Shown in pieces: positions 17,625 to 33,679 of a stretch of DNA of 64,000 bases. The notes below the pieces were generated by a model. That model made no database searches and was not told where the DNA came from. It saw only the letters and a program-made list of their open reading frames with translations. Position 1 is the stretch's first letter, and each line of letters begins with the position of its first letter. A program made the translations under genes and the position numbers. Origin of the DNA: Escherichia coli (GTDB taxonomy: Bacteria; Pseudomonadota; Gammaproteobacteria; Enterobacterales; Enterobacteriaceae); NCBI RefSeq assembly GCF_002854065.1, contig NZ_CP024147.1; one strand, written 5' to 3'.

Positions 17625-17665
17625 GCAATGGCCACCGTTTATCTAACAGTGGCCATTTGATTTGA
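17625..17665 (+). terminator. Hairpin downstream of yhhT (possible terminator) at the edge of the AT-rich junction
   Basis: aatggccac...gtggccatt inverted repeat followed by tttgattt. Confidence 0.4.
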
Positions 17666-17986
17666 GGAAATGATGAAACATTATTCAGAAAATTAATTTA
17701 AAAAAACCATTCCTTAAGTCAAATATATATAAACGCCGAATAGCGATTAAATCCTTCTCAAAGAATGCACTGATAACATTGTGTTATTTTTATTGCCTCA
17801 TTTTTCTCACTCACTTATAGTTGGTCCCTGCTGGCAGTAATTTAGTCATTTCAGAGATTTTTACTCTGATGTGCACTTACTGACTTATCTCACAAGTAAT
17901 TTTTTCTCTAAATAAAGAATAGTGATGCCAGCAATTACAGTTAAATCTTGCTTTACTCGTAAAAACAATACTTTAATGGGGTTCTA

Positions 17987-18376
17987 ATGAGACATTACAT
18001 GAAGTGGTTTGCGGCTATTGCTGTTGTGGGTGCTTTAGCAGGTTGCGCGCGTACTGCGCCAATTGATCAGGTTCACTCAACCGTCAGCGCTGGTCATACC
18101 CAGGAACAAGTGAAAAAAGCGATTCTGAAAGCTGGCGTTGAACGCAAATGGATTATGTCCGAAGCCGGACAAGGCATAATTAAAGCACGTCAACAGTCAC
18201 GCGATCATTCAGCGGAAATACGCATTAACTACACGGCATCCAGCTACGATATCAATTATGAAAATAGCCAGAACCTACAAGCGTCAGGCGGACAAATTCA
18301 TAAAAACTACAATCGCTGGGTCCGCAATCTCGACAAAGATATTCAACTGAATTTGTCAGCGGGCGCAGATTTATAA
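17987..18376 (+). CDS. Putative lipoprotein of unknown function; first ORF of the accessory insert
   Basis: 129-aa ORF with signal peptide and lipobox (VGALAGC); preceded by GGGG RBS; alternative start 12 nt downstream (MKWFAA...). Confidence 0.5.
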   Translation: MRHYMKWFAAIAVVGALAGCARTAPIDQVHSTVSAGHTQEQVKKAILKAGVERKWIMSEAGQGIIKARQQSRDHSAEIRINYTASSYDINYENSQNLQASGGQIHKNYNRWVRNLDKDIQLNLSAGADL

Positions 18377-18435
18377 TTCTTCCTAAAGTCGGGCCGTTGC
18401 GGTCCGATAATAATTTAATTCCCTCTTAACAGGTT

Positions 18436-19503
18436 GTGCCCAACATGTACGAACAGGATTCTCTTAGCGCACTGGATGCGATTACCGAAGCTCAACGCAT
18501 TGCCTTTGCCCCTATGCTTTTTCAAACAGCACTCTGCCTACGTAATGCGGGTGTACTTTCATATCTGGATCGGCAAGGCAAACATGGCGCAACGCTGGCT
18601 GATATCACCGAACATAGCCATATCAACGAATATGCTGCCAGCGTTCTGTTAGATATGGGCTTAAGCGGGCGAATTATTACCTGTAAAGAGGGAATTTATT
18701 ACCTGGCGAAAATCGGTCATTACCTCCTGCATGACACTATGACTCGCGTGAATATGGATTTCACCCAGGATGTCTGTTACCAGGGGCTCTTCTTCCTCGC
18801 CGATTCACTCAATGAAGGAAAACCTTCCGGGTTAAAAGTATTTGGCGACTGGTCGACGATATATCCGGCACTTTCGCAATTACCAGACGCCGCTCGTGAA
18901 AGCTGGTTTGCGTTTGATCATTACTATTCAGATGGCGCATTTAACGCCGTACTGCCTTATGTATTCGCCAACAACCCCACAACATTGTACGATGTAGGCG
19001 GCAATACGGGTAAGTGGGCTTTGCGTTGCTGCAAATACAATGAAAACATCGCCGTGACGTTATTAGATCTGCCACAACAAATCGTACTAGCGAAAGAAAA
19101 TATCGCGAATGCAGGTTTTTCTGATCGCATAGATTTCCATGCGGTGGATATGCTAAGCGATGCCCCATTACCGGGCGAGGCTGATATCTGGTGGATGAGC
19201 CAATTTTTAGACTGTTTTTCACCCGAACAAATAATTAGCATACTCAGCAAAATTGCCAGCGTAATGAAGCCTGGCGCAAAAGTTTGCATCATGGAGTTGT
19301 TCTGGGATGCGCAGCGGTTTGAAGCAGCATCGTTTAGCCTGAACGCGTCCTCACTTTATTTTACCTGCATGGCAAACGGTAACAGCCGTTTCTATAGTGC
19401 AGAGAAATTTTACGACTATCTGAATAAAGCAGGATTCCAGGTAGCAGAGCGCCACGATAATTTAGGCGTTGGGCATACACTTTTGATATGCCAAAAGAAA
19501 TAA
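18436..19503 (+). CDS. apeB: SAM-dependent O-methyltransferase (class I), ApeB-like
   Basis: 355-aa ORF with SAM-binding motif YDVGGNTG and LLDLP; track start appears to be GTG, ATG 9 nt downstream (MYEQDSL...). Confidence 0.75.
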   Translation: MPNMYEQDSLSALDAITEAQRIAFAPMLFQTALCLRNAGVLSYLDRQGKHGATLADITEHSHINEYAASVLLDMGLSGRIITCKEGIYYLAKIGHYLLHDTMTRVNMDFTQDVCYQGLFFLADSLNEGKPSGLKVFGDWSTIYPALSQLPDAARESWFAFDHYYSDGAFNAVLPYVFANNPTTLYDVGGNTGKWALRCCKYNENIAVTLLDLPQQIVLAKENIANAGFSDRIDFHAVDMLSDAPLPGEADIWWMSQFLDCFSPEQIISILSKIASVMKPGAKVCIMELFWDAQRFEAASFSLNASSLYFTCMANGNSRFYSAEKFYDYLNKAGFQVAERHDNLGVGHTLLICQKK

Positions 19504-19543
19504 TCGTCACTTAATAATTTTGGTTTACCGCGGGCGCGCGTTG

Positions 19544-20266
19544 ATGAAATTTACATTAAATATTACCGACTGGCAGGCACTGGCGCCTGGACTTAGCGAA
19601 GCGCAGCAATGGCAAGCATGGTCGCGCCAGCCGTGGGCGATTGACCCTGCCGCGCCGTTGGCAAAATTAAGTGAACTGCCAATGATGACCGCCCGCCGCC
19701 TCAGTTCAGGCAGCAAACTGGCTGTTGAATGCGGTCTGGCAATGCTACGCCGCCATCAGCCAGACGCCGTTTTGTATACCAGTCGTCATGGCGAACTGGA
19801 GCGCAATTACCGCATTGTTCATGCACTGGCAACCGAACAGGCGCTTTCTCCGACGGACTTCGCGCTCTCCGTACACAACTCTTCCGTGGGTAACCTGACC
19901 ATTGCGGCCAAACAGCCGATCGTTTCGTCATCGCTTTCGGCTGGTCGCGACACTTTCCAGCAAGGTTTGTGTGAAGTGCTTAGTCTGTTACAGGCGGGCT
20001 ACCAGCGCGTGTTGATGGTCGATTTTGATGGCTTTCTGCCTGAGTTCTATCATCCACAACTGCCCGCAGAAATGCCGACCTGGCCGTACGCCGTCGCGCT
20101 GGTGATTGAAGCTGGCGATGAGTGGCAATGTGGAACGCAGTCAGCCATTGCGGGTAATGAAACAACACTGCCGCAAAGCATGTTGTTTTTACAGCACTAT
20201 TTACAAAATGCGGACACATTTTCACTGCCTGGCGAGCGCGTACAGTGGCGCTGGAGCCGTGGATGA
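19544..20266 (+). CDS. apeC: Ketosynthase-like chain-length-factor protein (KS-beta without active-site Cys), ApeC-like
   Basis: ORF 19520..20266 trimmed to ATG (MKFTLNITDWQ...); KS-like N-terminal fold but SSSLSAG where KS carries the catalytic Cys. Confidence 0.65.
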   Translation: MKFTLNITDWQALAPGLSEAQQWQAWSRQPWAIDPAAPLAKLSELPMMTARRLSSGSKLAVECGLAMLRRHQPDAVLYTSRHGELERNYRIVHALATEQALSPTDFALSVHNSSVGNLTIAAKQPIVSSSLSAGRDTFQQGLCEVLSLLQAGYQRVLMVDFDGFLPEFYHPQLPAEMPTWPYAVALVIEAGDEWQCGTQSAIAGNETTLPQSMLFLQHYLQNADTFSLPGERVQWRWSRG

Positions 20267-21084
20267 GTAAGCTGCTGTCACGTCTGGAGTGGACCTGGCG
20301 ACTGGTCATGACCGGGTTATGTTTTGCCCTGTTTGGTCTCGGCGGCCTGCTGCTTTCTGTCGTGTGGTTTAACATATTGTTAGTTTTGGTGTGGGATACT
20401 TCCCGCCGCCGTCGTTTGGCGCGTCGCAGCATTGCCGCCAGTTTTCGCCTGTTTTTAACTGTCGCGAAAGGGCTTGGCGTGCTGGATTATCGTATTGATG
20501 GCGCTGAAATTTTACGTCAGGAACGCGGTTGCCTCGTCGTAGCCAATCATCCCACGCTGATCGATTACGTGCTGCTGGCGTCAGTCATGCCAGAAACTGA
20601 CTGCCTGGTGAAAAGCGCGCTGTTAAAAAATCCTTTTCTTGGCGGCGTCGTGCGGGCGGCAGATTATTTAATCAACAGCGAAGCTGAAACCCTGTTACCC
20701 CGCTGCCAACAGCGACTGGCACAGGGTGACACTATCCTGATTTTCCCCGAAGGCACGCGAACGAAGCCCGGTGAAAAAATGACGCTGCAGCGCGGGGCGG
20801 CGAATATTGCCGTGCGCTGTGCCAGCGATTTACGCATCGTGACGATCGGCTGTAGCGAGCATCTGCTGGATAAACAAAGTAAATGGTATGACGTTCCACC
20901 TGACCGGCCGTTTTTTACGGTTGCAGTCCATGGTCGGGTTGAAATCAATAAATTTTACGATGCAACTTCACAAGAACCGGCGCTGGCAGCAAGGCAGTTA
21001 AACCGGCATCTTTTGCTTCAATTACAACAAGGTTGTTTACCTCTCTCAGGAATAAATAATGCAAGCGCTTTATCTGGAAATTAA
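20263..21084 (+). CDS. apeD: Lysophospholipid/1-acylglycerol-3-phosphate acyltransferase family protein, ApeD-like
   Basis: HX4D motif (NHPTLIDY), FPEGTR motif, N-terminal TM helix; ATG overlaps upstream stop (ATGA). Confidence 0.8.
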   Translation: MSKLLSRLEWTWRLVMTGLCFALFGLGGLLLSVVWFNILLVLVWDTSRRRRLARRSIAASFRLFLTVAKGLGVLDYRIDGAEILRQERGCLVVANHPTLIDYVLLASVMPETDCLVKSALLKNPFLGGVVRAADYLINSEAETLLPRCQQRLAQGDTILIFPEGTRTKPGEKMTLQRGAANIAVRCASDLRIVTIGCSEHLLDKQSKWYDVPPDRPFFTVAVHGRVEINKFYDATSQEPALAARQLNRHLLLQLQQGCLPLSGINNASALSGN

Positions 21085-21316
21085 AAACCTCATCATCAGC
21101 ACCCTCAATCTGGACGAGTTGACGCCTGATGATATCGATACCGACGCGCCGCTGTTTGGCGACGGTTTAGGGCTGGACTCTATCGATGCCCTGGAACTGG
21201 GACTGGCAGTAAAAAATGAGTACGGCATCGTGCTCTCTGCGGAAAGCGAAGAGATGCGTCAGCACTTTTTCTCCGTCGCCACTCTGGCCTCTTTCATTGC
21301 TGCGCAACGTGCCTGA
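21059..21316 (+). CDS. apeE: Acyl carrier protein 1, ApeE-like
   Basis: 85 aa, phosphopantetheine attachment motif GLDSIDALEL. Confidence 0.85.
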   Translation: MQALYLEIKNLIISTLNLDELTPDDIDTDAPLFGDGLGLDSIDALELGLAVKNEYGIVLSAESEEMRQHFFSVATLASFIAAQRA

Positions 21317-21327
21317 GGAAAGCCATC

Positions 21328-21579
21328 ATGACAGAACAACAAACCGTCTATCAGGAAGTCTCAGCCCTGCTGGTTAAGCTGTTTGAAATCGATCCGCAGG
21401 ACATCAAACCTGAAGCGCGCCTGTACGAAGATCTGGAACTGGACAGCATCGACGCCGTTGACATGATTGTGCACCTGCAAAAGAAAACCGGTAAGAAAAT
21501 CAAGCCGGAAGAGTTTAAAGCAGTGCGTACAGTCCAGGATGTCGTCGAGGCTGTAGAACGCCTGCTACAAGAAGCCTGA
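21328..21579 (+). CDS. apeF: Acyl carrier protein 2, ApeF-like
   Basis: 83 aa, attachment motif LELDSIDAVDMI; GAGGAA RBS. Confidence 0.85.
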   Translation: MTEQQTVYQEVSALLVKLFEIDPQDIKPEARLYEDLELDSIDAVDMIVHLQKKTGKKIKPEEFKAVRTVQDVVEAVERLLQEA

Positions 21580-21583
21580 TCTG

Positions 21584-22165
21584 ATGTCGGGCATTCGCTC
21601 GCTACCGATGATTAAGCTGCTGACTGGATTATTGCTGCTCGCCTGGCCGTTTGTGATTTGGTTTGGCTTAGCGCATAACGGCCTGCACTGGCTGTTGCCG
21701 CTAATAGCGTTGCTGCTTTTGTTGCGCCTGCGCCAGACCCGTCGCCAGGCGGGGCCGCTCCAGGTCGTCACACAAATCGTCGCTGTCGTGGGCATCGCAT
21801 TATGTGTCGCCAGCGTTCTGTTGAAAACACACCAGCTACTGCTGTTTTACCCGGTAGTGGTTAACGCGGTCATGCTGGCGGTTTTTGGCGGTTCGCTGTG
21901 GTCGGCAATGCCGATAGTTGAGCGGCTGGCGCGTTTGCAGGAGCCAGATCTGCCGGAAAAGGGCATGCGCTATACCCGCCGCGTCACGCAAATCTGGTGC
22001 GGCTTTTTCATCATCAACGGTGGAATTGCCCTCTTTACCGCGCTTTATGCCGATATGTCGTTATGGACCGCCTGGAACGGCATGATTGCTTATTTGTTGA
22101 TGGGAACATTAATGGCTGGTGAATGGCTGGTGCGCCGTCAGGTGATGAAAAGAGATCGCGCATGA
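21584..22165 (+). CDS. apeG: Integral membrane protein of unknown function, ApeG-like
   Basis: 193 aa with ~5 hydrophobic helices; translationally coupled to neighbours. Confidence 0.6.
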   Translation: MSGIRSLPMIKLLTGLLLLAWPFVIWFGLAHNGLHWLLPLIALLLLLRLRQTRRQAGPLQVVTQIVAVVGIALCVASVLLKTHQLLLFYPVVVNAVMLAVFGGSLWSAMPIVERLARLQEPDLPEKGMRYTRRVTQIWCGFFIINGGIALFTALYADMSLWTAWNGMIAYLLMGTLMAGEWLVRRQVMKRDRA

Positions 22166-23523
22166 AGCAGACCTTACCGCTTGCACGCTGGCTGACTGCG
22201 CCACGCTCTGATGACACACCCATTGCGTGGCTGGACGAAAGCTTCTGGACGCTGGGCGATTTGCGTCACGATGTCGCGCAACTTATCTGCCGCTTGCAGC
22301 AACAGCCGGGTGAACGCTGGGCGCTGTGCTTTGAGAACAGCTATCTGTTTATCGTTGCCCTGCTCGCCACGCTACACGCCGGAAAAACGCCGGTGCTTCC
22401 GGGGCATAACCGTGTTATCCAGCTTAACGAGCAACGTGAACTTTTTGATGGTGTGCTTAGCGACAGCGAACTTAACTGGCAAGGTTCATTGCTGTTGGTA
22501 GCAAGTTCCCCACAAATCGCGACACAATCCTTCACCTTTGCCGCTATAGCGCCAGAGGCTTTTATCGAGCTGTTTACCTCCGGTTCCACGGGACAGCCGA
22601 AACGGGTGATTAAACCTGTTCATTTGCTGGATCGTGAAGCAGAACTGCTGGCTGAACGATTAGGCGCACGTCTGGCGGGTTGTCGTGTCGTCGGTTCCGT
22701 ATTGCCGCAGCATTTGTACGGCCTGACTTTTCGCGTTTTCCTGCCCATGGCGTTGGGATTACCGCTGCACGCCGCCATGCTCTGGTATGTCGAACAGTTT
22801 GCCGCGTTGAGTCATCAGCATCGCTATATCTTCATCAGCAGCCCGGCATTTTTGAAGCGCCTGGATACCCAGCTTTCTCCGCCACCCGTTCAGGTGCTTC
22901 TCTCTGCTGGCGGTGAGCTGCCGTGGCAGGATGTACAACACACCGCAAGCTGGCTGCGCGTCTGGCCTGATGAAATCTACGGCAGCACGGAAACCGGTGT
23001 CATCGCCTGGCGTTACCGCGAACAAGAGCAACGCCGCTGGCTACCCTTCCCTGGTATGCAGTTCCAGGCCGAAGGTGATTCTTTTCGTCTCTTTTCACCG
23101 CTGATGGCGGAAGATAACGGCCTGTTACTCGACGATCTCTTGCAGTTTAGCCAGGACGGTCAGTTCCATCTGATGGGGCGTCGTGGGCGCATCGTTAAGA
23201 TTGAAGAAAAACGTATTTCACTCCAGGAAGTAGAACAACGTCTGCTGGCGCTGGACGGTATTCGCGAGGCGGCGGCAGTTCCCGTTACGCGCGGCGGGCG
23301 TCAGAGCATAGGCGTTTTGCTGGTGCTGGATGACGAAGCTCATCTGCAATGGCAGAACGGCGGCGGGCATAGCCAGGAAATGACCTGGCGGCGTTTACTG
23401 CGCCCGACGCTGGAGCCAGTTGCTATTCCGCGTTACTGGCGCGTTATTGATGAAATGCCAGTAAACAGTATGAACAAGCGTGTCTATGCGCAATTACAGG
23501 AGTTATTTCATGAAGCCCCATGA
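22162..23523 (+). CDS. apeH: AMP-dependent synthetase/ligase (aryl/acyl adenylating enzyme), ApeH-like
   Basis: ORF 22123..23523 trimmed to ATG overlapping upstream stop (MKQTLPLARWL...); adenylation P-loop FTSGSTGQPKRV. Confidence 0.8.
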   Translation: MKQTLPLARWLTAPRSDDTPIAWLDESFWTLGDLRHDVAQLICRLQQQPGERWALCFENSYLFIVALLATLHAGKTPVLPGHNRVIQLNEQRELFDGVLSDSELNWQGSLLLVASSPQIATQSFTFAAIAPEAFIELFTSGSTGQPKRVIKPVHLLDREAELLAERLGARLAGCRVVGSVLPQHLYGLTFRVFLPMALGLPLHAAMLWYVEQFAALSHQHRYIFISSPAFLKRLDTQLSPPPVQVLLSAGGELPWQDVQHTASWLRVWPDEIYGSTETGVIAWRYREQEQRRWLPFPGMQFQAEGDSFRLFSPLMAEDNGLLLDDLLQFSQDGQFHLMGRRGRIVKIEEKRISLQEVEQRLLALDGIREAAAVPVTRGGRQSIGVLLVLDDEAHLQWQNGGGHSQEMTWRRLLRPTLEPVAIPRYWRVIDEMPVNSMNKRVYAQLQELFHEAP

Positions 23524-23863
23524 AATCGAGCGCCATCAGGCACAAACGAATCACCTTGAAATTGTTCTGCATCTCAGGGCGGATCTGTTCTGGTTTCGCG
23601 GTCATTTTGCCGTGCAACCATTACTCCCAGGAGTTGCGCAAATCGACTGGGCGATGAGCTACGCGCTCAATCTGCTCGCGCCTGGCTGGCGTTTTCACTC
23701 CATTCAGAACATAAAATTCCAGTCTCCGTTGCTGCCGGAAAACCGCGTCACGCTCGCGCTTAACTGGCAGGAAGAACGCCAGATTCTGAGCTTTAGCTAT
23801 CAGCGTCACGACGGTGACGCCCGCCACACCGCCAGTAGCGGGAAGATCCGCCTATGTCGGTAA
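23510..23863 (+). CDS. apeI: Hotdog-fold 3-hydroxyacyl-ACP dehydratase (FabA/FabZ-like), ApeI-like
   Basis: ~117 aa from MKPHEIERHQ...; hotdog-size protein in FAS-like context; start overlaps apeH end. Confidence 0.65.
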   Translation: MKPHEIERHQAQTNHLEIVLHLRADLFWFRGHFAVQPLLPGVAQIDWAMSYALNLLAPGWRFHSIQNIKFQSPLLPENRVTLALNWQEERQILSFSYQRHDGDARHTASSGKIRLCR

Positions 23864-25530
23864 ACTTTTCTCCCTGCGTGTTGATTCCCTGCTATAACCA
23901 CGGCGCGATGATGCCGGGCGTGCTGGCGCGTCTTAAGCCATTTAATCTCCCCTGTATTGTGGTGGACGACGGCAGCGATGCCGCCACGCAACAGCAACTG
24001 GATAATCTGGTTAGCGAACAGCCTGGCGTGACCTTAATTCGCTTAGCAGAAAACGCAGGTAAAGGCGCGGCAGTGATGCGTGGCTTACAGGCAGCGGCAG
24101 ACGCAGGGTTCAGCCATGCGGTGCAGGTGGATGCTGACGGTCAACATGCGATTGAAGATATCCCCAAACTGCTGGCACTCGCTGAACGACACCCTGCGGC
24201 GCTGATCTCCGGCCAGCCAATTTACGATGACTCCATCCCCCGCTCACGGCTTTACGGGCGCTGGGTCACCCACGTCTGGGTATGGATCGAAACGCTCTCC
24301 CTGCAACTGAAAGACAGCATGTGCGGCTTTCGCGTTTATCCGGTTGCGCCAACGCTGCAACTGGCAAAACACGCCACCATCGGCAAGCGGATGGATTTCG
24401 ACACTGAAGTGATGGTGCGCCTCTACTGGCAGGGAAACACCAGCTATTTCGTGCCGACCCGCGTCACCTATCCACTGGACGGGCTTTCGCATTTTGATGC
24501 CCTGAAAGATAACGTCCGCATCTCGCTCATGCACACGCGTCTGTTTTTCGGCATGTTACCGCGTATTCCTTCACTGCTGATGCGCCGCTCTTCCAGCCAC
24601 TGGGCGCGGCAGAGTGAAGTGAAAGGATTATGGGGAATGCGCCTGATGCTGCTGGTCTGGCGTCTGCTGGGAAGAACGGCGTTTAGCGCGCTGCTTTACC
24701 CGGTGGTGGGCGTCTACTGGCTCACTGCTTCTCGTGCGCGCAAAGCGTCGCAAGACTGGCTCGCCCGTGTACGACAGCATCAACCACAGGCGGCAAAACT
24801 CAACAGCTATCAGCACTTTCTACGTTTCGGTAATGCCATGCTCGACAAAATCGCCAGTTGGCGCGGCGAGCTGCAACTGGGGCGCGATGTGCTGTTTGCG
24901 CCAGGCGCAGAAGCGGCACTTAACGTCAGCGATCCGCGCGGCAAATTGCTGCTGGCCTCGCATCTTGGCGATGTGGAAGTGTGCCGGGCGCTGGCAAAAA
25001 TTCAGGGCTACAAAACCATTAACGCGCTGGTGTTTAGCGAAAACGCCCAACGCTTTAAACAGATAATGCAGGAGATGGCCCCGCAGGCCGGCATCAACCT
25101 GATGCCGGTAACGGATATCGGCCCGGAAACCGCCATCCTGCTCAAAGAGAAGCTGGATAACGGCGAATGGGTGGCGATTGTCGGTGACCGCATCGCCGTC
25201 AACCCGCAACGCGGCGGCGACTGGCGCGTCTGCTGGAGTCCGTTTATGGGCCAGCCTGCGCCCTTCCCACAGGGGCCGTTTATTCTCGCGTCTATTTTGC
25301 GCTGCCCGGTGAATCTGATTTTCGCCCTGCGCCAGCACGGCAAGCTGCATATTCACTGCGAAACCTTTGCCGACCCGCTGCTGTTGCCGCGTGGCGAACG
25401 CCAACAGGCGCTGCAAAACGCTATCGACCACTACGCCGCGCGTCTGGAACATTACGCGCTCCAGTCGCCCCTCGACTGGTTTAATTTTTTCGATTTCTGG
25501 CAACTGCCGGAAATTCAGGACAAGGAGTAA
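23854..25530 (+). CDS. apeJ: Two-domain protein: N-terminal family-2 glycosyltransferase fused to a C-terminal domain of unresolved (possibly acyltransferase-like) function, ApeJ-like
   Basis: 558 aa; GT-A signatures CYNHGAMMP, VVDDGSDA, QVDADGQH in the first ~230 aa; remainder has no motif I can assign. Confidence 0.75.
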   Translation: MSVNFSPCVLIPCYNHGAMMPGVLARLKPFNLPCIVVDDGSDAATQQQLDNLVSEQPGVTLIRLAENAGKGAAVMRGLQAAADAGFSHAVQVDADGQHAIEDIPKLLALAERHPAALISGQPIYDDSIPRSRLYGRWVTHVWVWIETLSLQLKDSMCGFRVYPVAPTLQLAKHATIGKRMDFDTEVMVRLYWQGNTSYFVPTRVTYPLDGLSHFDALKDNVRISLMHTRLFFGMLPRIPSLLMRRSSSHWARQSEVKGLWGMRLMLLVWRLLGRTAFSALLYPVVGVYWLTASRARKASQDWLARVRQHQPQAAKLNSYQHFLRFGNAMLDKIASWRGELQLGRDVLFAPGAEAALNVSDPRGKLLLASHLGDVEVCRALAKIQGYKTINALVFSENAQRFKQIMQEMAPQAGINLMPVTDIGPETAILLKEKLDNGEWVAIVGDRIAVNPQRGGDWRVCWSPFMGQPAPFPQGPFILASILRCPVNLIFALRQHGKLHIHCETFADPLLLPRGERQQALQNAIDHYAARLEHYALQSPLDWFNFFDFWQLPEIQDKE

Positions 25531-25533
25531 AGG

Positions 25534-25956
25534 GTGCTTAACGATCCCCGATTTACCGCTGAAGTCGAGCTGACCATTCCCTTTCACGACGTCGATATGA
25601 TGGGCGTGGCCTGGCACGGTAACTATTTTCGCTACTTTGAAGTGGCCCGCGAGGCGCTGCTCAACCAGTTCAATTACGGCTATCGGCAGATGAAAGAGTC
25701 CGGTTATTTGTGGCCAGTGGTCGATGCGCGGGTGAAATATCGCCACGCCCTCACCTTTGAGCAACGCATCCGCGTGCGTGCGCATATCGAAGAGTTCGAA
25801 AACCGTCTGCGGATTGGCTATCAGATTTTCGATGCCGAAACGGGCAAACGCGCCACCACCGGATACACCATTCAGGTCGCGGTCGACGAGCAAAGTCGCG
25901 AACTGTGCTTTGTCAGCCCCGATATTCTGTTTGAACGCATGGGAGTCAAACCATGA
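25534..25956 (+). CDS. apeK: 4HBT/YbgC-type hotdog acyl thioesterase, ApeK-like
   Basis: 140 aa; apparent GTG start after AAGGAG RBS; hotdog thioesterase-like N-terminus (FHDVDMMGVAWHGNYFRYFE). Confidence 0.7.
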   Translation: MLNDPRFTAEVELTIPFHDVDMMGVAWHGNYFRYFEVAREALLNQFNYGYRQMKESGYLWPVVDARVKYRHALTFEQRIRVRAHIEEFENRLRIGYQIFDAETGKRATTGYTIQVAVDEQSRELCFVSPDILFERMGVKP

Positions 25957-26558
25957 AATTTTTACCGCTACTGGCGCTGCTGATTAGCCCGTTTGTGAGC
26001 GCCCTGACCCTGGACGATCTTCAGCAACGCTTTACCGAACAATCGGTGATCCGCGCCCATTTCGATCAAACCCGGACGATTAAAGATCTGCCGCAGCCGC
26101 TGCGATCTCAGGGCCAGATGTTGATCGCCCGCGACCAGGGGCTGTTGTGGGATCAAACCTCACCGTTCCCCATGCAACTATTACTGGACGATAAACGCAT
26201 GGTGCAGGTGATCAACGGTCAGCCGCCGCAAATCATCACGGCAGAAAACAACCCGCAGATGTTTCAGTTTAACCACCTGCTGCGCGCGCTGTTCCAGGCC
26301 GATCGCAAAGTGCTGGAACAAAACTTCCGCGTCGAATTTACCGACAAAGGCGAAGGCCGCTGGACGCTGCGCCTGACCCCAACCACCACGCCGCTGGATA
26401 AAATTTTCAACACCATCGATCTCGCCGGGCAAACCTATCTGGAGAGCATTCAACTTAATGATAAACAGGGCGATCGCACCGATATTGCTCTTACCCAACA
26501 TCAACTGACGCCAGCGCAACTGACCGATGACGAACGCCAACGTTTTGCCGCCCAGTAA
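25953..26558 (+). CDS. apeL: LolA-like periplasmic lipid/lipoprotein carrier, ApeL-like
   Basis: 201 aa with signal peptide MKFLPLLALLISPFVSA; ATGA overlap with upstream gene. Confidence 0.65.
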   Translation: MKFLPLLALLISPFVSALTLDDLQQRFTEQSVIRAHFDQTRTIKDLPQPLRSQGQMLIARDQGLLWDQTSPFPMQLLLDDKRMVQVINGQPPQIITAENNPQMFQFNHLLRALFQADRKVLEQNFRVEFTDKGEGRWTLRLTPTTTPLDKIFNTIDLAGQTYLESIQLNDKQGDRTDIALTQHQLTPAQLTDDERQRFAAQ

Positions 26559-28845
26559 ACGCCCCGCGCTGTTATGGGGGCTAGTCTGCCTGGTCATGGC
26601 GGCGGCGTTGCTGATCCTGCTGCCGCAATCACGGCTGAACAGTAGCGTGCTGGCTATGTTACCCAAACAGGCGATGGGCGATATTCCCCCAGCGCTGAAT
26701 GACGGCTTTATGCAGCGTCTGGACCGCCAACTGGTGTGGCTGGTCAGCCCCGGTAAAGAGGCTAATCCCAGGGTGGCTCAGGAGTGGCTGACGCTGCTGC
26801 AAAAATCCGCTGCGCTCGGCGACGTTAAAGGGCCAATGGATGCCGCCAGCCAGCAAGCGTGGGGCGCGTTTTTCTGGCAGCACCGCAACGGCCTGATTGA
26901 CCCCGACACCCGCGCCCGCCTGCAAAACGGCGGCGAAGCGCAGGCGCAGTGGATCCTCTCCCAGCTTTATTCTGCATTCTCCGGGGTAAGCGGCAAGGAG
27001 CTGCAAAACGATCCGCTGATGTTAATGCGCGGCTCGCAGCTGGCGATGGCAAAAAATGGCCAGCGTTTGCGGCTGATGGACGGCTGGCTGGTGACGCAGG
27101 ATCCCCAGGGCAACTACTGGTATCTGCTGCACGGCGAACTGGCGGGATCGTCGTTTGATATGCAGCAAACCCACCAGCTCATCACGACCCTGAATACGCT
27201 GGAAAAGGATCTGAAAACGCGTTACCCACAGGCGCAGTTGCTCTCGCGCGGCACGGTATTTTACAGCGATTACGCCAGTCAACAGGCGAAGCAGGATATC
27301 TCAACCCTGGGCGTGGCAACGCTGCTGGGGGTGATATTACTGATTGTGGCGGTGTTCCGCTCTTTGCGCCCATTGTTGCTTTGCGTGATTTCCATCGGCA
27401 TCGGCGCGCTGGCGGGAACGGTCGCCACTTTATTGATTTTCGGTGAATTACACCTGATGACGCTGGTGATGAGCATGAGCGTTATCGGCATTTCCGCTGA
27501 CTACACGCTCTATTATCTCACCGAGCGGATGGTGCACGGCAACGACGTTTCGCCGTGGCAAAGCCTGGCGAAAGTACGCAATGCCCTGCTGCTGGCGCTG
27601 CTCACCACCGTGGCGGCATATCTGATTATGATGCTCGCCCCCTTCCCCGGCATTCGCCAGATGGCGATTTTTGCCGCCGTCGGGTTGAGCGCCTCCTGTC
27701 TGACCGTCCTGTTCTGGCATCCGTGGCTGTGCCGTGGCCTGCCGGTGCGTCCGGTTCCGGCGATGGCGCTGATGCTGCGCTGGCTGGCAGCGTGGCGGCG
27801 CAATAAAAAACTGTCGCTGGGTCTGCCCGTCGCGCTGGCGCTGTTTTCGCTGGCGGGGATGTCAATGCTGCGCGTCGATGACGATATCTCGCAGTTACAG
27901 GCGCTGCCGCAGCATATTCTGGCGCAGGAGAAAGCCATTACCGCCCTGACCGGACAAAGCGTCGATCAAAAATGGTTTGTGGTTTACGGCGATTCGCCAC
28001 AGCAAACATTGCGGCGACTGGAGAAATATACCGCCTCACTTGAGTATGCGAAAAAAGAGGGGCTTATCAGCAACTACCGCACCATTCCGCTGAACTCCCT
28101 TGCGCGGCAGGAGGAAGATTTACAACTGCTGAAAACGGCGGCCCCGACAGTAACAAAAGCGCTGCAAAATGCCGGGCTGACGGCAGTGAACCCGGATCTC
28201 AACGCCATGCCAGTGAACGTTGATGAATGGCTGGCAAGCCCTGCCAGTGAAGGCTGGCGTCTGCTGTGGCTGACGCTGGAAAACGGCGAAAGCGGCGTAC
28301 TGGTGCCGGTTGAAGGGGTTAAAAGTAGCGCGTTGATGCAGGAAATCGCCACATATTACCCTTGCGGCATTGCCTGGGTTGATCGCAAAAGCACCTTTGA
28401 TGAGTTGTTCGCGCTTTACCGTTATGTCTTAACCGGCTTGTTGCTGGTGGCGCTGGCGGTGATTGCCTGCGGCGCAGTGGCCCGTCTCGGCTGGCGCAAA
28501 GGGCTTATCAGCCTTGTACCTTCGGTGCTTTCGCTGGGTTGTGGTCTGGCGGTGCTGGCGATGAGCGGGCAGGCGGTGAATCTCTTTTCGCTGCTGGCGC
28601 TGGTGCTGGTGCTTGGCATCGGCATCAACTACACGCTGTTTTTCAGTAATCCGCGCGGCACACCATTAACTTCGCTACTGGCGATCACGCTGGCAATGCT
28701 CACCACCTTGCTGACGCTGGGAATGCTGATATTCAGCGCCACCCAGGCCATCAGCAGTTTTGGCATTGTGCTGGTGAGCGGTATTTTCACCGCCTTCCTG
28801 CTTTCGCCGCTGGCGATGCCCGATAAAAAGAGAACAAAAAAATGA
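26527..28845 (+). CDS. apeM: MMPL/RND-superfamily membrane exporter, ApeM-like
   Basis: 772 aa, two hydrophobic TM bundles separated by soluble domains; start ambiguous (ATG 26527 overlapping apeL, or in-frame start further down). Confidence 0.75.
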   Translation: MTNANVLPPSKRPALLWGLVCLVMAAALLILLPQSRLNSSVLAMLPKQAMGDIPPALNDGFMQRLDRQLVWLVSPGKEANPRVAQEWLTLLQKSAALGDVKGPMDAASQQAWGAFFWQHRNGLIDPDTRARLQNGGEAQAQWILSQLYSAFSGVSGKELQNDPLMLMRGSQLAMAKNGQRLRLMDGWLVTQDPQGNYWYLLHGELAGSSFDMQQTHQLITTLNTLEKDLKTRYPQAQLLSRGTVFYSDYASQQAKQDISTLGVATLLGVILLIVAVFRSLRPLLLCVISIGIGALAGTVATLLIFGELHLMTLVMSMSVIGISADYTLYYLTERMVHGNDVSPWQSLAKVRNALLLALLTTVAAYLIMMLAPFPGIRQMAIFAAVGLSASCLTVLFWHPWLCRGLPVRPVPAMALMLRWLAAWRRNKKLSLGLPVALALFSLAGMSMLRVDDDISQLQALPQHILAQEKAITALTGQSVDQKWFVVYGDSPQQTLRRLEKYTASLEYAKKEGLISNYRTIPLNSLARQEEDLQLLKTAAPTVTKALQNAGLTAVNPDLNAMPVNVDEWLASPASEGWRLLWLTLENGESGVLVPVEGVKSSALMQEIATYYPCGIAWVDRKSTFDELFALYRYVLTGLLLVALAVIACGAVARLGWRKGLISLVPSVLSLGCGLAVLAMSGQAVNLFSLLALVLVLGIGINYTLFFSNPRGTPLTSLLAITLAMLTTLLTLGMLIFSATQAISSFGIVLVSGIFTAFLLSPLAMPDKKRTKK

Positions 28846-29426
28846 TCAAATCCACATTCTGGCGAGCGTTCGCCCTGACCGCTACGCTTATCCTCACCGG
28901 CTGTAGCCACTCGCAACCAGAACAGGAAGGCCGCCCGCAGGCGTGGCTGCAACCTGGCACGCGCATCACGCTGCCGGCACCAGGGATTTCACCCGCAGTC
29001 AATTCGCAGCAACTGTTGACCGGCAGCTTCAACGGCAAAACCCAGTCGCTGTTAGTGATGCTTAACGCCGACGATCAGAAAATCACCCTTGCCGGGCTGT
29101 CGTCGGTCGGCATTCGCCTGTTTCTGGTGACCTACGATGCGCAAGGGCTACGCGCCGAGCAATCCATCGTCGTCCCACAGTTACCGCCCGCAAGTCAGGT
29201 ACTGGCTGACGTGATGCTCAGCCACTGGCCGATTAGCGCCTGGCAACCGCAACTTCCCGCAGGATGGACACTTCGCGACAACGGTGACAAACGCGAGCTG
29301 CGTAACGCCAGCGGCAAACTGGTCACGGAAATCACCTATCTGAATCGCAAGGGCAAACGCGTGCCAATCAGCATTGAGCAGCATGTCTTTAAATACCACA
29401 TCACCATTCAATACTTAGGTGACTGA
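28842..29426 (+). CDS. apeN: Lipoprotein of unknown function, ApeN-like
   Basis: 194 aa, signal peptide plus lipobox LTGC; ATGA overlap with apeM stop. Confidence 0.6.
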   Translation: MIKSTFWRAFALTATLILTGCSHSQPEQEGRPQAWLQPGTRITLPAPGISPAVNSQQLLTGSFNGKTQSLLVMLNADDQKITLAGLSSVGIRLFLVTYDAQGLRAEQSIVVPQLPPASQVLADVMLSHWPISAWQPQLPAGWTLRDNGDKRELRNASGKLVTEITYLNRKGKRVPISIEQHVFKYHITIQYLGD

Positions 29427-29427
29427 T

Positions 29428-30597
29428 ATGATTTATATTTCCGCCGTCGGCATGATCAACGCCCTGGGAAATAACCTTGACGAAATCGCAACCAACCTGA
29501 CTCGCGGTGTTGCTCCCGGCATGCGCCCGCGCGCAGGCTGGTTGCAGGGGCATCCGCAGGCGGTCCTGGCTGGCGTGGATGGCGAGCTTCCGCTTATCCC
29601 GGAAAAATTCGCTGCGCACCGCTCGCGCAACAATCAGATCCTGCTGGCGGCGCTGGCGCAGATCCAGCCGCAGGTTGATGACGCTATCGCGAAATATGGT
29701 CGCGAGCGCATCGCGATTGTACTTGGCACCAGCACCTCCGGCCTGCATGAAGGCGACACGCACGTTAACCTGCGCACCCACGGGCAGCCGAGCACCACAT
29801 GGCACTACGCGCAACAGGAACTCGGCGATCCGTCGCGTTTTCTCAGCCACTGGCTGGCGCTCGACGGCCCGGCCTATACCCTTTCAACCGCCTGCTCTTC
29901 CAGCGCCAGAGCGATAATCAGCGGGCGCAGGCTTATCGAAGCGGGGCTGGTCGATGCCGCCATTGTGGGTGGCGCAGACACCCTGAGCCGGATGCCGATT
30001 AACGGTTTTCACAGCCTCGAATCGCTGTCGCCAACCTTATGTCAGCCGTTTGGTCGTGACCGCGCAGGTATCACCATTGGTGAAGGGGCGGGGCTAATGC
30101 TGCTGACCCGGGAACCGCAGCCCATCGCGTTGCTGGGCGTTGGTGAATCGAGCGACGCTTACCATATTTCGGCCCCGCATCCGCAGGGCGAAGGGGCGAT
30201 CCGCGCCATTAATCAGGCACTGACCGATGCGCAGCTTACGCCAGATGACGTCGGCTATATCAACCTGCACGGCACCGCCACGCAACTCAACGACCAGATT
30301 GAATCGATGGTGCTTAACGCCCTGTTTGGCGAACGCGTACCGTGCAGCTCCACCAAACATTTGACCGGCCACACGCTGGGCGCGGCGGGCATTACCGAAG
30401 CAGCAATCAGTATGTTGATCTTACAGCGTGATTTACCGCTGCCCGCCCAAGATTTCAGCCTGTCGCCACGCGATCCCACGCTGCCACCCTGCGGCATTAT
30501 CGAAAAACCGCAGCCGCTGGCTCGTCCGGTGATCCTGTCCAATTCCTTCGCCTTTGGCGGCAATAACGCCAGCATTCTGCTCGGGAGGGTTTCGTGA
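29428..30597 (+). CDS. apeO: Beta-ketoacyl-ACP synthase (KAS I/II-like), ApeO-like
   Basis: ORF 29419..30597 trimmed to ATG after AGGTGA RBS; catalytic Cys (LSTACSSSA), His (NLHGTAT), GHTLGAAG. Confidence 0.85.
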   Translation: MIYISAVGMINALGNNLDEIATNLTRGVAPGMRPRAGWLQGHPQAVLAGVDGELPLIPEKFAAHRSRNNQILLAALAQIQPQVDDAIAKYGRERIAIVLGTSTSGLHEGDTHVNLRTHGQPSTTWHYAQQELGDPSRFLSHWLALDGPAYTLSTACSSSARAIISGRRLIEAGLVDAAIVGGADTLSRMPINGFHSLESLSPTLCQPFGRDRAGITIGEGAGLMLLTREPQPIALLGVGESSDAYHISAPHPQGEGAIRAINQALTDAQLTPDDVGYINLHGTATQLNDQIESMVLNALFGERVPCSSTKHLTGHTLGAAGITEAAISMLILQRDLPLPAQDFSLSPRDPTLPPCGIIEKPQPLARPVILSNSFAFGGNNASILLGRVS

Positions 30598-31058
30598 GCC
30601 ACTATTTATCCCCCGGCGCTTATCTGCCCCACGACGCGCCCATGTTACTGCTGGAAGACGTGGTGAGCGTCAGCGATGACAGCGCGGTGTGCCGCGTGAC
30701 GGTTTCGCCCAGTGGCGTACTGGCACCGTTTCTCGACCCGGACGGCAATCTCCCCGGCTGGTTTGCCCTTGAACTGATGGCGCAAACCGTCGGCGTCTGG
30801 TCTGGCTGGCATCGCCACCAGCAGGGCAAAAACAGTATTGAGTTAGGGATGATACTGGGCGCGCGTGAATTGCTTTGCGCCGCTGGCATTCTGCCCGCAG
30901 GCCAGACGCTGACCATTACCGTCAAACTGCTGATGCAGGACGATCGCTTCGGCAGTTTTGAGTGCAGCATCAACGACGGCGAGGCGACGGGCCGCATTAA
31001 CACCTTCCAGCCGACCGCGGAAGAACTTACCACCCTGTTTCAACAAGGAGCGTCCTGA
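30594..31058 (+). CDS. apeP: Hotdog-fold dehydratase, ApeP-like
   Basis: 154 aa; apparent GTG start after GGGAGGG RBS, overlapping apeO stop. Confidence 0.65.
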   Translation: MSHYLSPGAYLPHDAPMLLLEDVVSVSDDSAVCRVTVSPSGVLAPFLDPDGNLPGWFALELMAQTVGVWSGWHRHQQGKNSIELGMILGARELLCAAGILPAGQTLTITVKLLMQDDRFGSFECSINDGEATGRINTFQPTAEELTTLFQQGAS

Positions 31059-31789
31059 TGAGTCGTTCAGTTCTGGTTACTGGTGCCAGCAAAGGCATTG
31101 GTCGCGCCATCGCCTGCCAACTGGCGGCAGACGGCTTTAACATTGGCGTTCACTATCACCGTGACGCCACAGGCGCTCAGGAAACGCTGAATGCCATTGT
31201 CGCCAACGGGGGTAACGGGCGTTTGCTCAGTTTCGACGTCGCAAACCGCGAACAGTGTCGGGAAGTGCTGGAGCATGAGATCGCGCAACACGGTGCCTGG
31301 TACGGCGTGGTCAGTAACGCCGGGATCGCCCGCGATGCCGCTTTTCCGGCTTTAAGCGATGACGACTGGGATGCGGTGATCCACACCAACCTCGACAGTT
31401 TCTACAACGTCATTCAGCCGTGCATTATGCCAATGATCGGCGCGCGCCAGGGTGGGCGCATCATCACGCTGTCCTCGGTTTCCGGCGTAATGGGCAATCG
31501 CGGCCAGGTGAATTACAGCGCAGCCAAAGCCGGAATTATCGGCGCAACTAAAGCGCTGGCTATCGAACTCGCGAAGCGCAAAATCACCGTCAACTGCATC
31601 GCGCCGGGGCTTATTGATACCGGGATGATCGAAATGGAAGAGAGCGCTCTGAAAGAGGCAATGTCGATGATCCCCATGAAACGTATGGGCCAGGCGGAAG
31701 AAGTTGCCGGGCTTGCCAGTTATTTAATGTCTGATATTGCGGGTTACGTCACCCGCCAGGTTATTTCCATCAACGGAGGGATGTTATGA
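31058..31789 (+). CDS. apeQ: SDR-family 3-oxoacyl-ACP reductase (FabG-like), ApeQ-like
   Basis: 243 aa; TGASKGIGRAI cofactor motif, catalytic YSAAKAG. Confidence 0.9.
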   Translation: MSRSVLVTGASKGIGRAIACQLAADGFNIGVHYHRDATGAQETLNAIVANGGNGRLLSFDVANREQCREVLEHEIAQHGAWYGVVSNAGIARDAAFPALSDDDWDAVIHTNLDSFYNVIQPCIMPMIGARQGGRIITLSSVSGVMGNRGQVNYSAAKAGIIGATKALAIELAKRKITVNCIAPGLIDTGMIEMEESALKEAMSMIPMKRMGQAEEVAGLASYLMSDIAGYVTRQVISINGGML

Positions 31790-33015
31790 CACGTCGCGTA
31801 GTGATTACAGGAATGGGCGGCGTGACTGCCTTTGGTGAAAACTGGCAGGACGTTTCTGCACGCTTACTGGCGTATGAAAATGCGGTGCGCAAAATGCCGG
31901 AGTGGCAGGTCTACGATGGCCTGCACACCCTGCTTGGCGCGCCTGTTGATGATTTCACGCTACCGGAGCACTATACCCGCAAGCGTATCCGTGCGATGGG
32001 CCGCGTATCGCAAATGTCGACCCGTGCCAGCGAGCTGGCGTTAGAGCAGGCAGGGTTGATTGGCGATCCGATATTAACCAGCGGCGAAACGGGCATTGCG
32101 TACGGTTCATCGACCGGCAGTACCGGCCCGGTAAGCGAGTTCGCCACCATGCTGACGGAAAAGCACACCAATAACATCACTGGCACCACCTATGTGCAGA
32201 TGATGCCGCACACCACCGCCGTTAATACTGGCCTCTTTTTCGGCCTGCGCGGGCGGGTGATCCCAACCTCCAGCGCCTGTACTTCCGGCAGCCAGGCAAT
32301 CGGTTATGCGTGGGAAGCCATTCGCCACGGTTATCAAACGGTGATGGTTGCTGGTGGTGCCGAAGAGTTATGTCCTTCAGAAGCAGCGGTATTTGATACG
32401 CTTTTCGCCACCAGCCAGCACAATGATGCGCCGAAAACCACACCTTCACCGTTCGATGAAAACCGCGACGGGCTGGTGATTGGTGAAGGCGCAGGTACGC
32501 TCATTCTCGAAGAACTGGAGCACGCCAAAGCGCGCGGCGCGACCATTTACGGTGAAATCGTCGGCTTTGCGACTAACTGCGACGCGGCACATATTACCCA
32601 GCCGCAGCGCGAAACCATGCAGTATTGTATGGAGCAATCGCTGAAAATCGCCGGGTTAAGCGCACAAGATATCGGCTATATTTCAGCGCATGGTACGGCG
32701 ACCGATCGCGGTGATATGGCAGAAAGTCTGGCGACAGCAACCATTTACGGTGATAATGTGCCGCTCTCCTCGCTGAAAAGTTATTTTGGTCATACGCTTG
32801 GTGCCTGTGGCGCGCTCGAAGCCTGGATGAGTCTGCAAATGATGCGCGAAGGTTGGTTTGCGCCTACGCTAAACCTGAATAAACCAGACCCGAATTGTGG
32901 CGCGCTGGATTACATCATGCATGAAGCCCGCAAGGTTGATTGTGAGTTTTTGCAGAGTAACAACTTTGCCTTTGGCGGCATTAATACATCCATCATCATT
33001 AAACGTTGGCCCTGA
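31786..33015 (+). CDS. apeR: Beta-ketoacyl-ACP synthase II-like, ApeR-like
   Basis: 409 aa; MTRRVVITGMGG N-terminus, catalytic Cys (SSACTSGS), His (SAHGTAT), GHTLGACG. Confidence 0.9.
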   Translation: MTRRVVITGMGGVTAFGENWQDVSARLLAYENAVRKMPEWQVYDGLHTLLGAPVDDFTLPEHYTRKRIRAMGRVSQMSTRASELALEQAGLIGDPILTSGETGIAYGSSTGSTGPVSEFATMLTEKHTNNITGTTYVQMMPHTTAVNTGLFFGLRGRVIPTSSACTSGSQAIGYAWEAIRHGYQTVMVAGGAEELCPSEAAVFDTLFATSQHNDAPKTTPSPFDENRDGLVIGEGAGTLILEELEHAKARGATIYGEIVGFATNCDAAHITQPQRETMQYCMEQSLKIAGLSAQDIGYISAHGTATDRGDMAESLATATIYGDNVPLSSLKSYFGHTLGACGALEAWMSLQMMREGWFAPTLNLNKPDPNCGALDYIMHEARKVDCEFLQSNNFAFGGINTSIIIKRWP

Positions 33016-33016
33016 T

Positions 33017-33604
33017 ATGTATCGGATAGTTCTGGGGAAAGTTTCGACCTTAAGCGCAGCTCCACTGCCACCGGGTTTACGCGAGCAAGCACCGCAAGGT
33101 CCACGACGCGAACGCTGGCTGGCGGGGCGTGCATTGCTTTCGCACACGCTTTCCCCGCTACCGGAGATCATCTATGGCGAACAAGGCAAACCTGCATTCG
33201 CGCCGGAAACGCCGCTATGGTTCAACTTAAGCCATAGCGGTGACGATATCGCCCTGCTGTTGAGTGATGAAGGCGAAGTCGGCTGCGATATCGAAGTGAT
33301 TCGCCCGCGCGCCAACTGGCGCTGGCTGGCGAACGCCGTGTTCAGCCTCGGGGAACACGCTGAAATGGACGCCGTGCATCCTGATCAGCAACTGGAAATG
33401 TTCTGGCGCATCTGGACGCGCAAAGAAGCCATCGTTAAACAGCGTGGCGGCAGCGCCTGGCAAATCGTCAGCGTAGACAGCACCTATCACTCCTCGCTGT
33501 CAGTCAGCCATTGTCAGCTAGAAAATTTAAGCCTTGCGATCTGCACCCCCACCCCCTTTACGCTCACCGCCGACAGTGTGCAATGGATCGATTCAGTTAA
33601 CTGA
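33017..33604 (+). CDS. acpT: 4'-phosphopantetheinyl transferase AcpT
   Basis: ORF 32897..33604 trimmed to MYRIVLGKVSTLSAAPLPPGL... (195 aa); starts ~1 bp after apeR stop. Confidence 0.9.
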   Translation: MYRIVLGKVSTLSAAPLPPGLREQAPQGPRRERWLAGRALLSHTLSPLPEIIYGEQGKPAFAPETPLWFNLSHSGDDIALLLSDEGEVGCDIEVIRPRANWRWLANAVFSLGEHAEMDAVHPDQQLEMFWRIWTRKEAIVKQRGGSAWQIVSVDSTYHSSLSVSHCQLENLSLAICTPTPFTLTADSVQWIDSVN

Positions 33605-33649: not shown

Positions 33650-33679
33650 AGTATGACGAATACTTAAAATCGTCATACT
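33650..33679 (+). promoter_or_regulatory. NikR operator in the nikA promoter
   Basis: GTATGA-N16-TCATAC dyad ~40 nt upstream of nikA ATG; a possible FNR half-site (TTGATccagAACAG) lies just upstream. Confidence 0.8.

Follow-up and report, generated by a model that had tools for sequence, protein, structure and literature searches.

The phosphopantetheinyl transferase gene acpT is very probably the last gene of the aryl polyene operon of Escherichia coli, orphaned by deletion where the island is missing

Here, we propose that acpT very probably completes the aryl polyene (APE) operon of Escherichia coli as its 19th gene, that its product is the 4'-phosphopantetheinyl transferase (PPTase) for the carrier proteins ApeE and ApeF, and that deletion of the island encoding these carriers orphaned it. 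The gene identities, the geometry of the locus, the conservation of the apeR-acpT junction and the deletion scar were computed here from the window, i.e., the whole stretch of 64,000 nucleotides that was analyzed, and from its comparison with other genomes; the activity of AcpT on both carriers is reported in the literature (PMC8253772, citing De Lay & Cronan 2006).

Results

The region under study, O-island 138 of O157:H7, is the E. coli APE cluster apeA-apeR and is flanked by yhhT on one side and by acpT-nikA on the other. The window is 100% identical to the record of strain CUWW06, and several gene products were taken from the PGAP annotation of that record; together with Pfam matches, these products give 18 genes in the order published by Johnston et al. 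2021 (PMC8253772), from which the ape names were assigned. All features below lie on the + strand unless stated otherwise. The island, which comprises the cluster and its upstream intergenic region, spans 17604..32996 as delimited by blastn against K-12 MG1655. Over 15,393 bp, it is 98.1% identical to that of O157:H7, with like flanks; CFT073 shares 96.9% identity with it over the two carrier genes. The locus is the same as O-island 138 with acpT of O157:H7 EDL933, including the carrier genes, as far as that work is recounted (De Lay & Cronan 2006, Mol Microbiol 61:232), with no substantive difference in the window except for the strain.

In the AT-rich gap 5' of apeA, a consensus scan alone gave a putative sigma-70 promoter for the cluster (TTGCCT-17-TATAGT, 17793..17821; 9 of 12 matches), a match that does not by itself indicate function. 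The first genes encode a lipoprotein (apeA, 17999..18376; PGAP), a SAM-dependent methyltransferase (apeB, 18445..19503; PF00891 and PGAP), a ketosynthase chain-length factor (apeC, 19544..20266; PF13723, E 1e-66, and PGAP) and a lysophospholipid acyltransferase (apeD, 20263..21084; PF01553 and PGAP). Beyond the two carrier genes, apeG (21584..22165) encodes a membrane protein that is hypothetical in PGAP, had no match in a Pfam search and is assigned to COG4648 by Johnston et al. (PMC8253772), and apeH (22162..23523; PF00501) encodes an adenylating enzyme that, to judge from its Xenorhabdus and Acinetobacter baumannii orthologues, loads 4-hydroxybenzoate onto a carrier protein (PMC8253772, PMC12624758). 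The genes apeI-apeN (23510..29426), all with open reading frames, encode a dehydratase, a glycosyltransferase, a thioesterase, a LolA-like protein, an MMPL/RND transporter and a DUF3261 protein according to PGAP. They are followed by apeO for the elongating ketosynthase (29428..30597; PF00109 and PF02801; NF006618, 556 bits), apeP for a second dehydratase and apeQ for a FabG2-like ketoreductase (together 30594..31789; PGAP), and apeR for the last ketosynthase (31786..33015; PF00109 and PF02801; NF006587, 778 bits).

The apeA-apeR cluster of the UPEC strain CFT073 shares all 18 genes with the window, identically arranged, and its heterologous expression yields APE pigment (PMC8253772). This pigment was made from the 18-gene cluster without acpT in a K-12-derived host, which has a chromosomal acpT, and the result does not discriminate between an APE pathway with and without a need for AcpT.

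The two acyl carrier proteins that the earlier note had read at 21059..21579, both with a DSID motif, are borne out by the open reading frames and by two sets of family models. ApeE (21059..21316; 85 aa) and ApeF (21328..21579; 83 aa) are encoded 11 nt apart and match the Pfam PP-binding family PF00550 with 33.3 and 50.4 bits, respectively, both above the gathering score of 20.8, as well as the NCBIfam carrier-protein families NF006617 (ApeE, 90.8 against a cut-off of 70) and NF003757 (ApeF, 146 against a cut-off of 65). Both translations show, where helix 2 begins, the attachment serine in its conserved Asp-Ser-(Leu/Ile) context, and the predicted phosphopantetheine attachment sites are Ser41 of ApeE (GLDSIDALE) and Ser40 of ApeF (ELDSIDAVD); in A. 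baumannii, the attachment site of ApeE is Ser41 (PMC12624758). With a mutual identity of just 30%, ApeE and ApeF are old paralogues rather than products of a recent duplication. The A. baumannii APE cluster likewise has two adjacent, non-identical carriers with split roles, ApeE carrying the starter and ApeF the malonyl units (Lee et al. 2025, PMC12624758).

AcpT (33017..33604; 195 aa) is an Sfp-type (group II) PPTase. It matches the NCBIfam AcpT equivalog NF007676 over residues 1-195 of 195 with 396 bits (cut-off 174) and the ACPS superfamily domain PF01648 with 44.1 bits (cut-off 25). The closest solved structure is that of Sfp from Bacillus subtilis (1qr0, E 6e-9), and in the alignment with Sfp, residues D91, E93, E137 and K141 of AcpT correspond to D107, E109, E151 and K155, i.e., the Mg-binding triad and the catalytic lysine are present. 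D91 and E137 are invariant in 51/51 AcpT orthologues from island-bearing genomes. Similarly to Sfp and to EntD of the enterobactin pathway, AcpT is encoded beside a pathway whose carriers it reportedly serves; however, it is shorter (195 aa compared to 224-228), is 28% identical to EntD (PMC4103896) and, unlike both, persists in most genomes without its pathway.

Several observations place acpT within the ape operon. First, the apeR/acpT junction (33013..33019) reads CCC TGA T ATG, with the apeR stop codon at 33013-33015, a single T at 33016 and the acpT start codon at 33017-33019, just as the earlier note had it when it set the start of acpT about 1 bp past the final ketosynthase stop. This gap equals that between apeN and apeO, and all 19 genes from apeA through acpT share a strand, their intergenic distances ranging from -32 to +68 nt. 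Second, consensus scans of the + strand found no promoter-like site between 28787 and acpT and no terminator-like site between 31756 and acpT (33017); the absence of an acpT promoter inside apeR at the level of 9 of 12 consensus positions is weak negative evidence. Third, the distance from the apeR stop codon to the acpT ATG is 1-3 nt at 54/54 scored junctions in the Enterobacteriaceae, 50 island-bearing species among them. This gene arrangement, with one strand, short gaps and such a spacer at all scored junctions, is not due to chance. Because the spacer is 1 nt, promoter- and terminator-like sites were absent from the scanned intervals and the tight junction recurs in 50 island-bearing species, co-transcription of apeR and acpT is strongly implied. 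The TGA-T-ATG arrangement is probably a termination-reinitiation site that couples translation of the two genes, and AGGA, GGAG and GAGG are all absent from the 20 nt upstream of the junction. On the far side of acpT, a script-based pattern search found a strandless palindrome, GTATGA-N16-TCATAC (33651..33678), in the 111-nt gap before nikA. This palindrome resembles a NikR operator and would mark where the nik operon, with a regulation of its own, begins.

The proposal that acpT is orphaned in K-12 because the island is missing there holds in the genome comparison. In MG1655, homology to the window ends at 17603 and resumes at 32997, so that 38 bp replace the 15,393-bp island; acpT is present, starts 54 bp past yhhT and is still preceded by the final 19 nt of apeR. 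Among 5426 complete E. coli genomes, 820 (15%) have the island at ≥80% coverage and 824 have the carrier pair, whereas acpT is full length in 5425.

The same pattern extends to other Enterobacteriaceae. Among 80 species-level loci with an AcpT orthologue, ape genes lie directly upstream of acpT in 52, and no AcpT orthologue was found at any other locus. The remaining 28 loci are island-less, four of them with long apeR fragments and several others with short or decayed apeR 3' remnants. These remnants range from 19 nt to 191 codons and define at least four junction types; their differing lengths among island-less species indicate that the island was lost several times by deletion and not gained by insertion. 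In K-12, the residual sequence forms an 18-codon open reading frame whose ATG overlaps the yhhT stop codon and which ends at the apeR stop codon 1 nt before acpT. This frame is retained in four of five Escherichia and two of two Salmonella, whereas a stop codon interrupts it in the Citrobacter freundii group and several Enterobacter lack it; we make no claim that it serves as a relay in the translation of acpT in island-less strains.

Despite the loss of the carriers, acpT is intact in 28/28 island-less species loci (192-206 codons). Within island-less clades that have a deletion junction in common, dN/dS values range from 0.04 to 0.13 and depart from neutrality (binomial p < 1e-9), and the median is 0.07 for island-less pairs compared to 0.11 for island-bearing pairs, i.e., constraint is not relaxed without the island; these pairwise NG86 estimates are rough, and for the Enterobacter clade dS approaches saturation. 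In the C. freundii group, the apeR remnant has decayed, with an in-frame stop codon, next to an intact acpT. Three island-less Enterobacter species have a D91S substitution, and one of the three also has E137G; both residues belong to the triad that group II PPTases reportedly cannot do without (PMC4103896). The open reading frames with D91S are nevertheless under purifying selection (dN/dS 0.08-0.12). The association of catalytic changes with island loss has a Fisher p of 0.015, a value that ignores phylogeny and rests on only about two independent events.

Discussion

The junction of 1 nt and its conservation argue for counting acpT among the genes of the ape operon, and we propose the following scheme. 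acpT would be transcribed together with apeA-apeR, and its translation would probably rely on reinitiation, one base past the apeR stop codon, by ribosomes that have just finished apeR. AcpT would then move the 4'-phosphopantetheine arm from coenzyme A to Ser41 of ApeE and Ser40 of ApeF. Following the literature on APE synthesis, holo-ApeE would receive the 4-hydroxybenzoate starter from ApeH, holo-ApeF would carry the malonyl extender units, and the polyene would be assembled with ApeR and ApeO/ApeC as ketosynthases, ApeQ as reductase and ApeI and ApeP as dehydratases. Deletion of the 15.4-kb island up to a point 19 nt before the apeR stop codon stranded acpT without its known substrates in K-12 and most other E. 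coli.

In the earlier note, the arrangement was said to fit AcpT as the dedicated PPTase of these carriers. The assignment itself is supported by the conserved junction and by the in vitro activation of the EDL933 ApeE and ApeF homologues by AcpT, as relayed by Johnston et al. (PMC8253772, citing De Lay & Cronan 2006). By contrast, "dedicated", if taken to exclude any other role, is too strong, because acpT remains intact and constrained where the carriers are gone and because an AcpS-type enzyme loads the orthologous carriers of A. baumannii (PMC12624758).

The retention of acpT in island-less genomes, and the constraint on it there, mean that it probably serves more than the APE pathway. That AcpT has a second, island-independent role, with the APE carriers as one of its jobs, would add to the main explanation rather than replace it, and we give it somewhat less than an even chance. 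The retention of acpT in all but one E. coli genome and in every island-less locus, its survival beside the decayed apeR in the C. freundii group and the constraint on the Enterobacter open reading frames with altered triad residues all point in this direction, within the limits of the selection estimates and of the small number of catalytic changes noted above. Candidates for such a role are LpxC/LPS homeostasis without a need for transferase activity and backup modification of AcpP or of other carriers. In support of the former, overexpression of AcpT leads to suppression of yejM mutants and to higher LpxC, and catalytic activity is not needed for this effect (PMC7240159, PMC7773988); however, this is an overexpression phenotype, which may reflect FtsH titration according to the authors (PMC7240159). 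The more specific proposal that an island-independent and at least partly transferase-independent function sustains purifying selection on acpT without the island, i.e., in ∼85% of E. coli genomes and about one third of the sampled Enterobacteriaceae species, and explains the D91 and E137 changes in Enterobacter, is tentative, and we consider it rather doubtful.

It is improbable that ApeE and ApeF are physiologically activated by AcpS or EntD, with AcpT redundant and its position a historical accident. Housekeeping AcpS of A. baumannii served to generate both holo-orthologues in vitro (PMC12624758), and the gene list of Johnston et al. has no PPTase within the cluster (PMC8253772), but the 1-3 nt junction in 50/50 scored island-bearing species, the invariance of catalytic residues in the island-bearing sequences, the confinement of AcpT orthologues to this one locus and the reported activity of AcpT on the EDL933 carriers speak against this idea. 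That the island instead inserted beside a pre-existing, unrelated acpT, with K-12 as the ancestral state, would fit the low share (15%) of complete E. coli genomes that have the island and the homologous island-less junction common to Escherichia, Salmonella and Citrobacter, but is highly improbable given the apeR 3' ends of varying length before acpT in island-less genomes and a base composition that bears no foreign mark, island (G+C 0.549), acpT (0.571) and nik (0.575) being equally G+C-rich.

Returning to AcpT as the PPTase of the APE operon, what is new relative to the work on EDL933 is the conservation of the junction across species and the selection analysis. The title of the 2006 paper by De Lay and Cronan makes the claim of the earlier note, that AcpT serves these carriers and is an orphan in K-12, in nearly the same words. 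Accordingly, the AcpT-carrier link and the loss of the island in K-12 are already known, as that paper is represented in Johnston et al. 2021 (PMC8253772). In the published description of the CFT073 cluster, however, the cluster ends at apeR, and AcpT is an orphan enzyme outside it, whereas the 1-nt junction in the window argues that acpT is inside the operon.

These findings support extending the APE cluster as far as acpT, a boundary not in use in the APE literature, and heterologous expression of the cluster may require the acpT of the host. The practical value of this is small. An "orphan" enzyme that is universally retained and constrained suggests an undiscovered job and, if a second function of AcpT as outlined above is true, it could, given the published interaction of AcpT with YejM and LpxC, tie the production of APE lipids for the outer membrane to the control of LPS synthesis.

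Results

The aryl polyene (APE) cluster lies in a part of the E. coli chromosome that is 100% identical to strain CUWW06 (18000-36000). From 17999 to 33015, 18 genes are all encoded on the + strand with intergenic gaps of −32 to +68 nt and, based on Pfam and NCBIfam assignments and PGAP product names, they match gene for gene the apeA-apeR order of the aryl polyene cluster described for E. coli CFT073 (PMC8253772). The two DSID-containing carrier proteins of the earlier note were located as it had placed them, i.e., apeE (21059-21316, + strand; 85 aa) and apeF (21328-21579, + strand; 83 aa). Both score above the PP-binding gathering threshold, and Ser41 of ApeE and Ser40 of ApeF are, based on the motif, the expected attachment sites. 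Because ApeE and ApeF share only 30% identity, they represent distinct carriers and not a recent duplication.

acpT (33017-33604, + strand) scores 396 bits against the AcpT equivalog model (cut-off 174), and all Mg-binding and catalytic residues are present in an alignment to Sfp. The proposed start of acpT ∼1 bp past the stop codon of the last ketosynthase gene, apeR, is exact: the TGA at 33013-33015 is followed by a single T and the acpT ATG at 33017. In the window sequence, no Shine-Dalgarno-like run was detected in the 20 nt 5' of this ATG, and scans of the window revealed no + strand promoter-like site between 28787 and acpT and no terminator-like site between 31756 and acpT. On the best reading of this arrangement, acpT would be transcribed together with the APE cluster and translated by termination-reinitiation at the apeR stop. 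A scan of 33605-33715 also detected no terminator-like site between acpT and nikA, and transcription could read through from the APE operon into nik. By pattern match, the acpT-nikA gap contains the palindrome GTATGA-N16-TCATAC (33651-33678), which we take to be a putative NikR operator. Further downstream, the annotation of an identical record places a hicAB toxin-antitoxin pair after nikR (39158-39789) and two DUF4049 paralogues, yhiJ and its neighbour, at 45151-48624; these paralogues explain why G+C drops to 0.35-0.41 at 46-50 kb. The same annotation has an IS2 copy (63282-64000) that is truncated by the end of the window.

Scanning one genome per species, we found AcpT orthologues (59-98% identity) at 80 loci. 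Within the 10-kb flank, genes of the ape cluster (apeM to apeR) are directly 5' of acpT in 52 of these loci and yhhT in the remaining 28; none of the 80 has the orthologue elsewhere than at the yhhT/ape locus. At every scorable junction, i.e., 50 island-bearing loci and four with long apeR remnants, 1-3 nt separate the apeR stop from the acpT ATG. Almost all record titles are Enterobacteriaceae, the exceptions being one unclassified Proteobacteria MAG and one Chryseobacterium label. The latter record (L066, CACSKA010000004.1, ‘Chryseobacterium sp. 18061’) has an ape-acpT locus of Enterobacteriaceae type, with match coordinates and identities nearly equal to those found for Citrobacter sp. 18056 (L068) from the same project; the L066 assembly is probably mislabelled or contaminated.

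As the earlier note had held, the island is missing in K-12 with acpT left behind. In MG1655, acpT starts 54 bp after yhhT; homology to the window ends at 17603, at the yhhT stop codon, and restarts at 32997, such that 15,393 bp are replaced by 38 unrelated bases while the last 19 nt of apeR (CATTAAACGTTGGCCCTGA) are kept before the acpT start. This remnant shows that the island-less state came by deletion. Of the 5426 complete E. coli genomes examined, 820 have the island at ≥80% coverage, including O157:H7 (98.1% identity), CFT073, Nissle 1917 and NC101; 824 have the carrier-gene pair, and 5425 have full-length acpT. Thus, the carriers, which are the known substrates of AcpT, are absent from ∼85% of E. 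coli genomes and acpT is near-universal. Separately, E. coli CFIAFB20190167 (NZ_CM143724.1) has a 99-bp pseudogene fragment of the apeR 3' end (L083:3000-3098; 98.7% over 79 bp) away from acpT, flanked by a btuB copy and a LacI-family regulator and near iha.

At least four junction types are present among the island-less loci, arguing for several independent deletions, each of which left acpT in place. An apeR remnant of ∼19-25 nt is found in Escherichia, Salmonella and Citrobacter, remnants of 126-147 nt (42-49 codons) in some Enterobacter and in Leclercia, a 191-codon fragment, separated from yhhT by ∼3.8 kb of other DNA, at locus L071, and no remnant in other Enterobacter. At L037, L045 and L052 (42-49 codons) and at L071, the apeR 3' fragments after yhhT are longer and the deletion endpoints differ from that of E. 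coli. Just 5' of acpT, island-less Escherichia, Salmonella and Citrobacter share a homologous junction sequence (L004-L007, L011, L013, L016, L014-L024, L026, L027), yet Escherichia and Citrobacter also have island-bearing genomes; either both alleles have coexisted for very long, or one has moved between species by recombination at the yhhT/acpT flanks. Within island-less clades sharing one common junction, the deletion is probably older than their divergence.

The K-12 scar in the yhhT-acpT gap (L002:5912-5968) forms an 18-codon ORF (MRRQVIRYALSFSIKRWP), the ATG of which overlaps the yhhT stop (ATGA) and which ends at the former apeR stop codon, 1 nt short of the acpT start. It is kept in four of five Escherichia and both Salmonella, is shorter in some Citrobacter and, in the C. 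freundii group, is interrupted by a stop codon. This ORF may relay translation from yhhT to acpT. Read by eye, a TGnTAC(G/A/C)AT-like element is conserved in the 38-bp filler of island-less junctions (K-12, TGATACGAT; Salmonella, TGCTACAAT), at L002:5925-5933 and at the same position in L004-L007, L011, L026 and L027. It resembles an extended −10 promoter ∼35 nt 5' of the acpT ATG and may be the promoter of acpT where the island is absent.

Discussion

The observation that acpT adjoins the APE cluster is confirmed and its interpretation, in which AcpT activates the two carriers, is supported; both are known from the literature. De Lay and Cronan reportedly also noted in 2006 that acpT is adjacent to O-island 138. 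The reading of the earlier note is the already published conclusion of De Lay & Cronan 2006, as cited by Johnston et al., and for that reason holds little interest in its present form. According to Johnston et al. (PMC8253772), the “orphan” AcpT of O157:H7 EDL933 activates ApeE/ApeF homologues in vitro. This supports AcpT as a carrier transferase; however, “dedicated” goes too far, because acpT is kept and constrained without the island.

Several results argue against AcpT being an APE enzyme only. First, acpT is near-universal in E. coli although most genomes lack the carriers, survived each of the inferred deletions and is intact (192-206 codons) at 28 of 28 island-less species loci, and in the Citrobacter freundii group it is intact next to an apeR remnant that has decayed and contains a stop codon. 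Second, by pairwise, crude estimates, with dS near saturation in the Enterobacter clade, acpT has a dN/dS of 0.04-0.13 inside single-junction island-less clades (neutrality rejected, binomial p < 1e-9), and the median is 0.07 for island-less versus 0.11 for island-bearing pairs (dS 0.1-0.8), i.e., the former are no more relaxed. Third, in vitro, the AcpS of A. baumannii yields the holo forms of both the ApeE and the ApeF orthologue (PMC12624758).

Fourth, D91 and E137 occupy the first and third triad positions, which are reported to be essential in group II transferases (PMC4103896), and neither varies among the 51 island-bearing AcpT sequences. Three island-less Enterobacter species, E. sichuanensis, E. 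soli and E. wuhouensis, have Ser in place of D91 (GCSLE versus GCDIE; L075, L077 and L082, acpT at 10001-10621, ORFs intact), and E. soli also has Gly in place of E137 (RKGA), together about two events only; these genes still have a dN/dS of 0.08-0.12. Fifth, overexpression of AcpT suppresses the defects of yejM mutants and increases LpxC, with catalytic activity being dispensable (PMC7240159, PMC7773988), an effect that may be an overexpression artefact.

The present work makes two small additions. It extends the APE operon boundary in Enterobacteriaceae so that acpT becomes the final gene, whereas the usual drawings of the cluster leave it out. Moreover, the “orphan” acpT is under selection in the absence of its known substrates, which points to a plausible additional role of AcpT.
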